From a virus (Duplodnaviria > Heunggongvirae > Uroviricota > Caudoviricetes): a stretch of DNA of 27,461 bases. The DNA is taken from the IMG/VR virus record IMGVR_UViG_2718218399_000001. One strand, 5' to 3'. Of the stretch, positions 9,001-12,000 are shown piece after piece (positions within the stretch are counted from its first letter, which is position 1; every line of letters starts with the position of its first letter). A program made the position numbers.

Positions 9001-12000
9001 TTCTCGATCGCTGTCTTGCAGCTGCAATTCGCGCCATCCCCAAAACCACTCAAGTTCTGGTCTCAACGGTTAGGTTGAGAGTTCGTCGATGTTAAAGAGC
9101 CTGCCAATCTGTTCCTTGTGGCGTCTCAGCGTCCTGCTGATGGAAATGATAGTCACATATTGTGATTTAATGGTCAATCACAAAATGTGTAAAATAAAGG
9201 TGTGACACGTTATGTGTATGATTTTTTTGTGTAAATAGTTTTACCCGCGATGGTTTTGCTTACTTAAGTCGGTGGCAACAGCAGGATGGGTGCTGAAAAG
9301 TTCGAAAAACGAGCGAATGGGGTGGTGGCGAGATGGCGGGATATGGGAGTTGTATTAAGAATTATAGTAATTTAATCAATAGTTTGGACCGGCGGGCAGG
9401 TGCTGTCCTGATAGTGATCGGCGGGCAATAAAAAACCCGGCTCGGTGGCCGGATTTGCTAAATTACTGACCTTTCTTAAGGTACAAGTTTATTAGGAAAA
9501 ATATAGTTGGCATAGCAAGCGAGGCCAAGAGAACCCCGAGCATCCATACTTTTACATCTGCTATCTTGGTTTCCAAAGCGGAAAATTTAGCTTCAAAGTA
9601 GTCAACCGATGGTTTCTTAGATAATGAAGCATCAAAATCCAGGCTCTTCTGTAAAAGTACAGCGGTGTCTCTTTTGGCGTCAGTAGAATCAGAAGATATT
9701 TTCCGGGTATCCTCTTTAATTCCTGCCATGCTGCTCTTGATGTGCGCAACTTCAGCTTCAAGAACTGCTAATCGCTTATCCATGTCGTCGCCTCCATCAT
9801 CACTTGTTGTTTGAATGATCTCAGTATCATCCATCACAACCGATGTGACAATCCGTTTTTCTTTATCTGAAGCAGCAACAGAACAAGCTTTCATCAAGAG
9901 CGTTGCTTGGCTTGATGCTACAGAAGAAAATTCCAGCCCTACTGTAGAGCCATTCTTATCAGAGTAAGCAATTACTAGCTTTCCCTCATCCAAAGATGAT
10001 TGAGCTGCATTCATCAGCTTTTATTCCTCGAACATGCTTTTCAAGGACTGATAGAAATCGAAGGCCTTCTGTTTACTTAAAGTCACGGACGCAACCTTAG
10101 TGCGCTGCATTCCTGCCACTGCGATTTCGCCATTCATATGGCCGATGACAGGGGTGCTATTGAGAAAAACGAAGTTAAAAACTTCGTAGCCATTGTTATC
10201 CGTTCCGATGGTTACAACCCCATCAGCATTAGTTTCAATATAATTTTTGGACTCCAGCACATCATTGATATGTGCTAAGGAAACTTCTTGTTTATCGCTC
10301 ATTTATGTTCTCCTGAACCAACAAAATAGGTAAAAATCTTTTCAATTTCATTAGATTAATTTGCATAAAAAGAACAGGGAAAAGTTGGATTACCAGCTAT
10401 GCGCCGACCAGAACACCTTGCCGATCAGCCAAACGTCTCTTCAGGCCACTGCGCCTTAACTACCTTGCCTATGATGCGGCAGCTATGGTCGCAATCCAGG
10501 GTTCTATATGCCGGGTTTAAAGGTACCAGGTAACTAACCCCTGCATCCTTCTCATACTTCTTGAACGTTGCCTCTGAATCACCATTTGCAGAAGCCACGC
10601 AGAAATCCCCAGACTCTACCGGCTCAGCCGGATCAACGAGTATCAGCATGCCTTCCGGAAAACTTGGACGAACCCCCTGAGGCGCCGTCATTGAATGCCC
10701 CTTCACCTCAAGCCAGAAAGCTTTTTCGCTGGCTTTTGTGGTCGTTGGGACCCATGCCTTTGCATCGCTGGCTGTGTAGCTTCCCACCTCCGAAAATGGC
10801 CCGGCCTGCACTGAAGAAAATAACGGGTATTCATATTGGCGAAATACGGCGTCTGAATCCTCGCCAAACATTATTTTTGCCGGAGATACGCCGAGTGCCG
10901 CCCCAAGAACCAGCGCGTCATCCGCGCTAACCTTTCTTGTTCCTAACTCGTAGTTCCCCAGGCGTGAAGGCGCAGCCCAGCCGCAAAGCTTGGCCAATTG
11001 AGCCTGGCTAAGTCCTTTAGCTTCTCTAAGGGACTTGATCCTTTCCCCGATAATTTCATGCATCGTTTTCATCCCTTAAATGTAACACGCAACGTGATTG
11101 AACTCTGTACACGAATTGAGGTTGACTGTTAATCACAAATTGTGTGTAATGGGTGTGTGATTAATGCTAGGGAGACCGCAATGAACAAAATTGCCCAGCA
11201 GCGAAAAAAAATCGGAGTTTCGCAAGCTGTACTAGCTTCGGCAATTGGTTGGGGGCAATCCCGCATCGCCAACTATGAGCTGAATATCCGTACTCCTGGC
11301 CTTAACGATTGCCGAATGATCGTAGAAGGCCTCAGGAAGTTAGGGTGCCAATGTTCTTTGGATGATGTTTTCCCTCCATCCAGTAACAAAGCCGCCTAAG
11401 CAGTACCCGCTCTTTAACAGTCCTCGCCGACCAACAAAAATACACCGGCCCATATTTATGCCGGAAACGGCAATTTTGTGGGGGACGGGATCCGCCAGGC
11501 GATGCTGGCCCGTGCCGGATTTGAAAATGTCGAGAAGGATAACGCCTATAACGGGATGACCCTGCGTGAATGGGCTCGCATGTCACTGACGGAGCGCGGT
11601 ATTGGGGTGGCCAGTTATAACCCCATGCAGATGGTCGGGCTGGCGCTGACGCACAGCACCTCTGATTTTGGCAATATTCTGCTGGATGTGTCGAACAAGG
11701 GGCTGATCCAGGGCTGGGAGGAATCAGAAGAAACCTTCCAGAAGTGGACCCGTAAGGGACGCCTGTCAGACTTCAAAACAGCGTATCGCGTGGGGATGGG
11801 CGGTTTTGGTTCTCTGCGCCAGGTTCGTGAGGGGGCGGAGTATAAATACATCACCACCTCAGATCGCAAGGAGACCATTGCACTGGCCACTTACGGGGAG
11901 ATTTTCTCCATCACCCGCCAGGCCATTATCAATGATGATCTGAATATGCTGGTGGACGTGCCGATGAAGATGGGGCGTGCGGCGAAGGCAACGATTGGTG

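Follow-up and report, generated by a model that had tools for sequence, protein, structure and literature searches.

Cargo genes downstream of prophage repressors

In phage lambda, rexA and rexB lie in a slot that is the classic site for abortive infection encoded by a prophage. The system excludes T4 rII and other phages through loss of membrane potential, and the mechanism of Rex is still unresolved. The cI-rexA-rexB operon has an internal promoter, pLIT, which raises rexB. Other cargo is found downstream of prophage repressors as well, such as Stk in 933W and Nun in HK022. The interval between cI and N is a hotspot of mosaic diversity that holds two abortive-infection systems, RexAB and BstA, and Rex exclusion is suppressed by excess RexB (PMC8585504).

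Here, we describe an unrelated pair of genes in this slot. The sequence we analyzed ("the window") is a 27,461-nucleotide viral record, IMGVR_UViG_2718218399_000001 from IMG/VR. It comes from a deleted remnant of the Stx1 prophage of Escherichia coli O157:H7, in strain 86-24, and the pair has been kept in this defective remnant. The original prediction was of a two-gene cassette on the repressor strand, and ORF calling recovers both genes (Table 1). Gene 1 corresponds to ECs2991/Z3359 and gene 2 to ECs2992/Z3360 of the O157:H7 Stx1 prophage (Sp15/CP-933V). The gene upstream of them encodes a cI-type repressor (PF00717, E = 3e-26; HTH_3, E = 3e-10), which is annotated as phage repressor ECs_2990 in Sakai.

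Table 1. Features of the cassette and its surroundings, with positions in the window
Feature	Coordinates	Strand	Basis or remark
cI-type repressor (HTH + Peptidase_S24)	10425..11072	-	First gene of the putative operon
Upstream junction common to lambda	10394..10451	-	Last 27 nt of cI (stop included) and 31 nt after the stop
cI-gene 1 spacer, 122 nt	10303..10424	-	AT-rich past the 31 nt in common with lambda; identical in HK544
Gene 1 (ECs2991/Z3359), 93 aa	10021..10302	-	Soluble, acidic; orphan family
Gene 2 (ECs2992/Z3360), 183 aa, long form	9463..10014	-	Tail-anchored coiled-coil membrane protein
N-terminal domain of gene 2, residues 10-47	9874..9987	-	Beta-hairpin and helix; pLDDT 74-80
Promoter-like site inside gene 2	9823..9851	-	Promoter scan; TTGTCA (9851-9846), N17, GATACT (9828-9823)
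Candidate internal RBS and ATG	9781..9795	-	Codon conservation; GGAGG (9795-9791), N7, ATG at codon 78 (9783-9781)
Predicted nested short product, 106 aa	9463..9783	-	Internal SD/ATG and promoter-like site; coiled coil and anchor without the N-domain
Coiled-coil core, residues 78-132	9619..9783	-	Starts with the near-invariant motif DGGDxM(E/D)KRLAVLEAEVAHIK
Transmembrane anchor, residues ~154-178	9481..9555	-	Hydropathy; followed only by KKGQ
tIMM-type intrinsic terminator, end of operon	9428..9456	-	Terminator scan; hairpin and T-run at 9456-9433

A replacement for rexAB

The pair was proposed to lie in the rexAB position, and it does: it is encoded between cI and tIMM, and the sequences at both junctions are identical to those of lambda. 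In a three-way alignment of the window, HK544, and lambda, the cargo diverges beyond the upstream junction. The downstream junction is the terminator. This had been called tIMM-like, and its hairpin aligns with tIMM from lambda and from HK544 ("Timm" is annotated in the HK544 record). Because the junctions at cI and at tIMM are identical to lambda's, the pair is an exact drop-in replacement of rexA-rexB. (In the literature, HK544 is mentioned as a test phage only.)

The layout also resembles that of rexAB. There are two genes, with the soluble product first and the membrane product second; the pair is presumably co-transcribed with cI and terminated at tIMM; and expression of just the membrane module could be raised from a promoter-like site within the cassette, much as rexB is raised from pLIT. 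In contrast, the proteins are quite different. RexA has 279 amino acids and RexB has four transmembrane helices, whereas the products here are a 93-residue protein and a single-pass, tail-anchored coiled coil, and the predicted nested product is an in-frame part of the same gene. Profile comparisons with hhalign gave probabilities of 0.2% for gene 1 against RexA and 0.8% for gene 2 against RexB, and gene 2 has one C-terminal hydrophobic segment instead of four transmembrane helices. BstA, Stk, and Nun are also encoded directly downstream of a repressor, and presumably share its promoter, but they are unrelated proteins from single-gene systems with cytoplasmic mechanisms. An unrelated and simpler two-gene module at identical junctions would be a tractable second example beside Rex.

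An accessory operon that is expressed in lysogens

Both genes have good ribosome binding sites, as expected: AGGAG (10314-10310) lies 7 nt before the ATG of gene 1 at 10302, and GAGGA (10029-10025) lies 10 nt before the ATG of gene 2 at 10014. The tight coupling is also borne out, with 6 nt from the stop of gene 1 to the start of gene 2. Translation of the two genes is coupled. Upstream of gene 1, in the spacer that follows cI, a promoter scan found nothing convincing, and no promoter-like site reached the scan threshold.

The cassette was described as AT-rich, and its GC content is 41.5%, versus 52.5% for cI and 56.4% for the head and tail arm. The neighboring sieB is as AT-rich as the cassette (39.9% GC). 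The suggestion that the cassette is a moron agrees with its deviant GC content, its own terminator, its exchange between immunity types, and the presence of its products in uninduced O157. A hairpin of the form CCGGCC...GCCGGG followed by a T-run is also found 3' of gene 2 at most loci. Both genes are under purifying selection (dN/dS of 0.08-0.36; 0.08-0.10 for gene 1). The cassette is a conserved two-gene accessory operon that is expressed from the prophage together with the repressor. Two other candidate members were rejected. Z3357 is cII, and the 65-aa opposite-strand ORFs that lie downstream of gene 2 at two loci show no relation to one another and have no counterpart in the window.

Expression in lysogens had been proposed, and both proteins are reported in published proteomes of uninduced O157. 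ECs2991 is listed in one of these (PMC3936929). The Z3360 protein was found only in a membrane-rich fraction of over 280 kDa (858, versus 0 in the other fractions; PMC3210124); these fraction data cover only the gene 2 protein. The mRNA of Z3360 is high (log2 of 11.8-13.0) and is twofold higher in an rpoS mutant (PMC2907692). The module is thus expressed in a major pathogen, and it is also present in a phage that can be cultured in the laboratory, HK544.

Architecture of the two proteins

Gene 1 encodes a soluble protein, as predicted, with a pI of 4.85 and no hydrophobic segment. It is predicted to be beta-rich with a C-terminal helix, and it has no DNA-binding domain; the AlphaFold2 model has low confidence (pLDDT of 46) and is unusable. 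Its family comprises 67 clusters, all of which are annotated as hypothetical and none of which (0/67) has a Pfam domain.

For gene 2, the original prediction was of an acidic, serine-rich cytoplasmic region with a coiled-coil-like stretch and a single C-terminal transmembrane helix. Each of these features is present. Residues 1-155 have a pI of 4.75, and 23 of the 183 residues are serine; AlphaFold2 places long helices at 78-132 and 137-182; and there is one hydrophobic segment, at about residues 154-180 (the Kyte-Doolittle maximum over 19 residues is 2.15). Gene 2 encodes a tail-anchored inner-membrane protein whose N-domain and coiled coil are cytoplasmic. In order, its modules are an N-domain that varies, a Gly/Asp linker, a coiled coil that is conserved, and the membrane anchor at the C-terminus. 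This modular build had been overlooked.

The modules of gene 2 have separate histories. The N-domain exists in at least three unrelated versions within the family (with alternatives in L017, L021, and L024), and three non-homologous anchors are interchangeable. The invariant columns of the family alignment (G74, G75, D76, R81, A83, L85, E86, V89, I92, and K93) lie in the core and the motif at its start, and the coiled-coil module dominates the 595 matches of an exhaustive search. The pattern of dN along gene 2 is mosaic, with purifying selection on both halves. Divergence of gene 1 goes together with that of the N-domain of gene 2; the coiled coil and the anchor are shuffled independently. We do not press this co-variation as a sign that the two bind each other: they are neighbors in the DNA, and linkage alone would give it.

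One claim failed. The N-termini of the two proteins were thought to share a motif, but the profile-profile probability for the gene 1 family against the gene 2 family is just 0.5%. The two stretches in question are both predicted beta-hairpins with an Asn-Gly turn.

That neither protein belongs to a known family still stands: neither matches Pfam, NCBIfam, PADLOC, PDB, RexA, RexB, or SieA. Homology searches had been proposed as a check, and those against sequence and family databases gave nothing above noise for either protein. PADLOC-DB 2.0 has no families that match either protein at E values up to 1, and Foldseek with the gene 2 model found no match in BFVD or PDB at E ≤ 0.001.

The nearest resemblances are to other proteins with a helical region and a C-terminal anchor. 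XhlA is located in the lysis cassettes of Bacillus phages. XhlA-like proteins (PF10779; phrog_937 and phrog_1193, both labelled "hemolysin") also combine a short coiled coil with a transmembrane helix at the C-terminus. Of 16 family members, 8 match phrog_937 through the coiled-coil/anchor module, with a best E value of 1e-6, a recurrent but weak similarity that may reflect coiled-coil composition. Against the Pfam model PF10779, whose gathering threshold is 34.7 bits, the best relative scored 16.4 bits and no match was listed for the window protein. Unlike XhlA, the module here lies in an immunity operon and has an extra N-domain and a partner gene.

A mobile unit behind unrelated repressors

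How often the pair occupies the repressor slot was a check suggested with the original prediction. A scan of species-representative genomes gave only two loci, and a scan of viral contigs was used in its place. In 40 of the 43 viral contigs, gene 2 is coupled to a gene 1 homolog of 93-106 aa, which ends at most 14 nt upstream of gene 2 or overlaps it. The pair is directly downstream of a repressor in 40/43 contigs, and these repressors are of many kinds. Among the 25 distinct genes upstream of gene 1, Peptidase_S24 was found in 21 and HTH_3 in 22. The same arrangement is seen in prophages of Serratia, Citrobacter, Cronobacter, Enterobacter, and Pseudomonas and in Rac-like prophages of E. coli. 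Copies of the cassette that are 98-100% identical can lie behind repressors with only 17-47% identity to each other. The pair is a mobile two-gene unit that is found behind many unrelated repressors. At one locus, gene 1 is truncated and gene 2 is intact.

A predicted nested product of gene 2

We identified two candidate signals within gene 2 that were absent from the original prediction and are new here: a conserved promoter-like site and, downstream of it, a conserved RBS-like sequence with an ATG (Table 1). The bases of the promoter-like hexamers are fixed at synonymous sites and neighboring codons vary freely, with the caveat that recombination junctions also fall in the conserved core, and this alone raises synonymous identity. 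Codon 55 is NTT in 23/24 sequences. Where codon 56 encodes valine, it is GTC in 18/22 cases (background 14%), and where codon 64 encodes threonine, it is ACT in 19/20 (background 30%).

The codons at the candidate RBS are similarly constrained. In a set of 25 unique family members, codon 74 never ends in C or T (21 have GGA and 4 have GGG); other conserved glycine codons end in one of these two bases in 33-68% of sequences (Fisher p of 1e-7). All 25 unique members have the internal ATG, and the RBS/ATG motif is kept in the remote homologs from phages S107 and UPF_BP1. Because the promoter-like site and the internal RBS and ATG are conserved, we predict a nested product of 106 aa, by analogy with pLIT and rexB in lambda. 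Judging from this codon usage, a short form made from the promoter-like site and GGAGG-N7-ATG is probably functional. A predicted promoter, RBS, and ATG nested within a gene would be a way for cargo genes to carry their own dosage control.

The holin-antiholin pair of lambda, S107/S105, is a known case of dual products from one gene. As in that case, the two predicted products here would be in frame, both would contain the membrane part, and their ratio could tune activity. The differences are that the starts here are 77 codons apart, that the long form has a whole extra domain, and that there is an internal promoter-like site.

Gene callers often place the start of the ORF at the internal ATG. 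We also considered that "module-only" proteins of 93-99 aa might be free-standing genes, but every case that we inspected was an internal-start call within a longer frame. Annotation of the locus is affected: both genes are labelled hypothetical, and some genomes call only the internal ORF.

Possible functions of the pair

By analogy to lambda, the pair may well be a Rex-like, membrane-based phage-exclusion module, and this is the explanation that we tentatively prefer. The module would shield the lysogen, and hence the prophage, from other phages at the inner membrane, with a logic similar to that of Rex. Gene 1 might form a sensing or regulatory unit with the N-domain of the long form; the two diverge together, and the coiled coil and anchor shuffle independently of them. 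The effector step might be assembly of the anchors, driven by the coiled coil, which would cause a membrane lesion or block a process at the inner membrane. The ratio of the short form to the long form could set the activation threshold or give the prophage self-immunity, in parallel to the suppression of Rex exclusion by excess RexB from pLIT. To our knowledge, a threshold or self-immunity role for excess RexB in lambda has long been proposed and never demonstrated. Since healthy cells contain the gene 2 protein in abundance, any lethality has to be kept under tight control. An observation against a Rex-like module is that three unrelated anchors fit a generic tether as well as a specific pore. 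The exclusion, abortive-infection, and toxin-antitoxin readings are all drawn from position and architecture.

The most specific version of the Rex-like explanation is possible, though we have our doubts about it. The pair would then be a new system for abortive infection or exclusion that is widespread among prophages of Pseudomonas and the enterobacteria, where it lies in the repressor operon. A tail-anchored coiled coil in two nested forms would serve as the effector, and the short form, from the embedded promoter and RBS, would be a threshold or self-immunity device. If the pair does exclude phages, this would matter for phage therapy and for how Stx phages behave ecologically.

It is unlikely, in our judgment, that the pair has a role in lysogenic conversion that is unrelated to phages, with gene 2 as a tail-anchored scaffold for stress tolerance, the envelope, or ribosome tethering. 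The E. coli proteins ElaB, YqjD, and YgaM (DUF883) have a cytoplasmic helical domain and a single C-terminal anchor. Gene 2 has the same tail-anchored layout, and the rise of Z3360 mRNA in the rpoS mutant, the detection of both proteins in gut-like or laboratory growth, and the retention of the module in the 86-24 remnant would all suit such a role. However, linkage to cI may be all that lies behind the retention in 86-24, and ElaB, YqjD, and YgaM are chromosomal stress-response proteins that have no partner gene (and Pfam scans gave no match to them here). The strict tie to the prophage repressor slot across genera argues against conversion. Also, the fast modular diversification of the N-domain and gene 1 resembles an arms race, not housekeeping.

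Superinfection exclusion without killing seems quite unlikely. An anchored complex would block DNA entry or an early step at the inner membrane, like SieA of P22 or gp15 of HK97. Gene 2 is in the inner membrane of lysogens, as SieA is, and in the P22-like Salmonella phage UPF_BP1, a remote homologous pair follows mnt in immI, where P22 has sieA. The protein is constitutively abundant and not apparently toxic, as would be expected of a passive blocker, and interchangeable anchors suit a tether. But gene 2 is not similar to SieA (hhalign probability of 1.6%), which is a multi-pass protein of 164 aa that lacks a coiled coil. Only about four residues (KKGQ) would be periplasmic, which would confine any contact with the tail or ejection proteins of an incoming phage to the membrane or the region below it. 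And a passive blocker has no obvious need of a soluble partner, a variable cytoplasmic domain, or a nested isoform.

A toxin-antitoxin pair was the alternative in the original prediction, and we consider it very improbable. Such an addiction pair would stabilize the prophage, gene 2 encoding a membrane toxin and gene 1 a protein that serves as the antidote. A small and tightly coupled operon with a soluble acidic protein first would be suitable, as would the membrane-active architecture of gene 2. In a type II system, an antitoxin that binds DNA would be paired with a toxin of a known family. Pfam and NCBIfam show no domain in either protein, neither matches a toxin or antitoxin family, and gene 1 lacks a DNA-binding domain. 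Autoregulated toxin-antitoxin operons have a promoter of their own; none was detected for this pair, which apparently rides on the repressor transcript. The locus with a truncated gene 1 and an intact gene 2 is also hard to reconcile with an antidote.

Finally, an accessory to the phage's own lysis or induction, such as an XhlA-like holin helper or timer, is scarcely credible: there is weak profile similarity to XhlA-like "hemolysin" and holin/antiholin PHROGs, and the long and short forms recall holin/antiholin pairs, but the protein is abundant in uninduced cells, and the cassette belongs to the immunity operon and not to a lysis cassette: it is encoded with the repressor, ahead of tIMM and on the same strand, in prophages that carry complete lysis cassettes of their own.

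The pair of genes takes the place of rexAB

In a joint alignment of the window, the laboratory phage HK544, and lambda, gene 1 and gene 2 replace rexAB exactly, as had been proposed from their position, and both joints are common with lambda. At the upstream joint, the final 27 nt of cI and the 31 nt past its stop codon are identical in all three. Beyond this joint, lambda continues into the rexA leader, while the window and HK544 continue into the gene 1 leader. At the downstream joint, the terminator 3' of gene 2 aligns with lambda's tIMM, and the GenBank annotation of HK544 labels it Timm, followed by oL3-oL1 and pL. 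HK544 has lambda-type cI and operators, and its flanking cI and oL sequences differ from those of the window, but the cassettes differ at a handful of positions over ~1 kb. The conserved joints, together with a near-identical cassette between differing flanks, indicate that the pair is an exchangeable cargo module.

The pair lies in the immunity operon. By analogy with cI-rexA-rexB, we expect the cassette to be transcribed from PRM and PRE; a promoter scan of the 122-nt spacer between cI and gene 1 found none.

Both predicted open reading frames are present, with good ribosome-binding sites (AGGAG and GAGGA) and an intergenic gap of 6 nt, and the genes are translationally coupled. The expected terminator was found, and gene 2 does encode an acidic, Ser-rich protein with long predicted helices and a single hydrophobic segment near its C terminus (approximately residues 154-180). 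The cassette is AT-rich, as described (41.5% GC, versus 52.5% for cI and 56.4% for the structural arm). The one claim that failed was a motif shared by the two N-termini, to which a profile-profile test gave a probability of 0.5%. Both genes are under purifying selection (dN/dS of 0.08-0.36). This extends to codons 1-72 of gene 2, which implies that the long form (the full 183 amino acids) is translated. The start codon of gene 1 is ATG in the window (at 10302) and GTG in HK544 and most other loci. At one metagenomic locus, gene 2 starts with TTG and overlaps the stop codon of gene 1.

Features of the cassette and its surroundings (whole-window positions)
Feature	Position	Strand	Description
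Gene 1	10021-10302	-	93 aa
Gene 2	9463-10014	-	183 aa
Gene 2 N-domain			variable; beta-hairpin + helix; at least three unrelated versions in the family
Gene 2 linker			disordered, Ser/Asp/Gly
Gene 2 motif			DGGDxM(E/D)KRLAVLEAEVAHIK; near-invariant; start of long helix
Gene 2 LSKKPS segment			conserved
Gene 2 C-terminal anchor			one of three unrelated types
Promoter-like site in gene 2	9851-9823	-	TTGTCA-N17-GATACT; from promoter scan; ~30 nt 5' of internal start signal
Internal start signal in gene 2	GGAGG 9795-9791; ATG 9783-9781	-	7-nt spacing
Terminator	9456-9433		hairpin + T-run
sieB	8080-8661	+	SieB superinfection exclusion (PF14163, E 1e-25); adjoins N; 39.9% GC
Truncated ClpP-like protease/major capsid fusion gene	11478-12518		next after end of Sp15 identity

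The cassette is conserved and mobile

We found relatives of gene 2 on 43 viral contigs, and 40 of these also have a gene 1 homolog (93-106 aa) that ends within 14 nt upstream or overlaps. Across loci, the gap between the two genes ranges from -20 to +14 nt. Among the 25 distinct genes found 5' of gene 1, 21 contain Peptidase_S24 and 22 contain HTH_3; one, an insertion, encodes an IS91-type transposase. The mean identity among the upstream repressors is 19%, and repressors that are 17-47% identical to the window's cI precede cassette copies of 98-100% identity. The order repressor, gene 1, gene 2 recurs in prophages of Serratia, Citrobacter, E. coli (Rac-like), Cronobacter, Enterobacter, and Pseudomonas lundensis. 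In several of these, the early left operon (N or kilR) comes next, and two of their repressor types lack the S24 domain. Most loci have a tIMM-like hairpin 3' of gene 2. The cassette is present in 106 of 5426 complete E. coli genomes and is at least 99% identical in 93 of the 106, mostly O157:H7.

Other arrangements also occur. In a Symbiopectobacterium MAG (L025, 3800-4347), a frameshift divides the gene 2 homolog downstream of an S24 repressor into two parts (127 + 60 aa), and the locus has no recognizable gene 1, as if the copy were decaying in the genome of a symbiont. At L063 (1050-2977), an IS91-family transposase (Y2_Tnp, E 2e-45) lies immediately 5' of a 225-aa gene 2 homolog, overlaps its start, and occupies the place of gene 1. 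In Salmonella phage S107 and its relatives (L004, 3550-4294), a 125-aa coiled-coil/anchor homolog adjoins a Cys-rich 124-aa protein. That module is downstream of two Rha-family genes instead of behind a repressor, so both partner and context differ.

Protein families and the modules of gene 2

Consistent with the original prediction, neither protein resembles a characterized family: comparisons to RexA, RexB, and SieA were negative, and there were no matches in Pfam, NCBIfam, PADLOC, or the sequences of the PDB. Searches for related folds with the gene 2 model were likewise negative. Gene 1 falls in a small orphan family; its 67 clusters are all annotated as hypothetical, none has a Pfam domain, and the named sources are all Enterobacterales. 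Its AlphaFold2 model, which has low confidence (pLDDT 46), is beta-rich with a C-terminal helix.

Gene 2 is a mosaic that has diversified by modules. Relative to a Serratia homolog, dN of the window type is 0.88 in the N-terminal part and 0.11 in the C-terminal part; relative to a Klebsiella-like homolog, the values are 0.11 and 0.48. In an exhaustive profile search (595 proteins at E ≤ 0.001), most of the proteins matched in the coiled-coil/anchor module alone. Divergent members of the gene 1 family adjoin gene 2 variants with other N-domains, and gene 1 divergence tracks that of the N-domain. This fits with gene 1 and the N-domain being a functional unit, but adjacency in the DNA would by itself also give co-divergence.

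A predicted nested product of gene 2

Many database entries for the coiled-coil/anchor module start exactly at Met78. In every such case that we inspected, the frame is open upstream into an N-domain. These starts reflect the strong internal GGAGG-N7-ATG signal, and its conservation points to a nested product. Across 25 unique members of the gene 2 family, the ATG is invariant, and the codon for the first residue of the invariant Gly-Gly is GGA in 21 and GGG in 4, never GGC or GGT. By comparison, 33-68% of sequences have C or T as the third base at four other conserved Gly codons (Fisher p 1e-7). In phages S107 and UPF_BP1, the remote homologs retain GGAGG or GGGAG, 7 nt, and ATG despite a different amino-acid context.

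The bases of the promoter-like site are also fixed at synonymous positions. In 23/24 sequences, codon 55 is ATT, CTT, or GTT, and the amino acid itself varies (Ile, Leu, or Val). Codon 56 is GTC in 18/22 Val (background 14%), codon 63 is GAT in 21/21 Asp, and codon 64 is ACT in 19/20 Thr (background 30%). Codons 54, 58, 62, 65, and 75, in the neighborhood, vary freely. Members with other N-domains have TATACT in place of GATACT. Synonymous identity peaks at codons 58-96; a recombination junction may account for part of this peak, but not for the codon-specific pattern.

Together, the conserved SD and ATG and the promoter-like site lead us to predict a 106-aa short form. Judging from sequence, this product, comprising the coiled coil and the anchor, is probably made from its own promoter. 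The candidate promoter resembles lambda's pLIT, a promoter within rexA from which rexB alone is expressed.

There is an extra constraint in the spacer that separates the internal SD from its ATG: Asp76 (codons 76-77 are at 9784-9789) is encoded by GAC in 25/25 sequences, while elsewhere in the genes 69% of Asp codons are GAT. At two other loci (L017, 1700-2203, and L070, 2773-3300), gene callers, including those of the NCBI records, annotate just the internal ORF of 93-99 aa; the frame there is open for 70-80 further codons 5' of the conserved Met start.

Expression in uninduced O157

Expression in lysogens, which the original prediction presupposed, is evident in three published datasets from uninduced O157. 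The gene 1 protein (ECs2991, 10 kDa) is listed in a rumen-fluid proteome (PMC3936929). The gene 2 protein (Z3360) was detected only in the >280 kDa size-exclusion fraction, which is enriched in membrane proteins (APEX of 858 versus 0 elsewhere; PMC3210124). Its mRNA has a log2 level of 11.8 in the wild type and 13.0 in an rpoS mutant (PMC2907692). The gene 2 protein fractionates with the membrane-rich fraction of lysogens. Its classification as an atypical lipoprotein (motif MKAC44S, no hydrophobic leader; PMC3210124) was a guess. Cys44 is not invariant in the family, and the C-terminal transmembrane anchor is a simpler and better explanation for the fractionation.

Possible roles

Lysogen-expressed cargo in the rexAB slot is of a kind already known. 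The interval from cI to N is a recognized hotspot that houses RexAB and BstA, both abortive-infection systems, and Rex is suppressed by excess RexB (PMC8585504). Database entries from 2000-2007 onward list both cassette genes as "conserved hypothetical". What is new is that they form a conserved, mobile, and widely distributed two-gene system, with exact rexAB-type junctions, a modular anatomy, and a predicted embedded promoter-like site, ribosome-binding site, and ATG. We consider the pair to be a well-founded candidate for a new exclusion system.

By analogy with Rex, the most likely role, which we put forward tentatively, is exclusion of other phages at the inner membrane. Gene 1 and the N-domain of the long form would be the sensing or regulatory unit, assembly of the anchors, driven by the coiled coil, would be the effector step, and the short form would modulate that step.

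A conversion function without relation to phages is the leading alternative, and we think it unlikely. Somewhat less likely still is a non-lethal block to phage entry; in the immI region of the P22-like phage UPF_BP1, a remote homologous pair comes next after mnt, where P22 carries sieA. That the genes are a toxin-antitoxin pair, as was also suggested, seems quite improbable. A role in the phage's own lysis is the least plausible. The coiled-coil/anchor module has weak, recurrent similarity to XhlA-like "hemolysin" PHROGs (8/16 members, best E 1e-6), and it never approaches Pfam's threshold for XhlA.

The prophage and its neighborhood

The region is 100% identical to E. coli O157:H7 genomes. 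Its counterpart in Sakai is Sp15, the Stx1 phage (VT1-Sakai), and in EDL933 it is CP-933V, where the pair is annotated as hypothetical (ECs_2991 and ECs_2992; Z3359 and Z3360). The strain is O157:H7 86-24, and the window is a remnant of the Stx1 prophage. Identity to Sp15 stops at ~11415, 16 nt past the stop codon of cro, and the protease/capsid fusion gene follows, which implies a deletion that runs from cII through the replication, stx1, lysis, and terminase genes. The immunity region of the remnant is intact. It contains sieB, which is as AT-rich as the cassette, so this region holds at least two accessory modules.

Besides the signal in gene 2, the window has five GGAGG-N5-9-ATG sites, and four of these are at likely gene starts, in keeping with a start at the gene 2 signal. 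In the tail-fiber region, a GGAGG-N9-ATG at 25614-25630 (+) is located within a 439-aa ORF (25255-26574), at the beginning of a 114-aa ORF (25628-25972), and could be a further start of the internal or alternative type.
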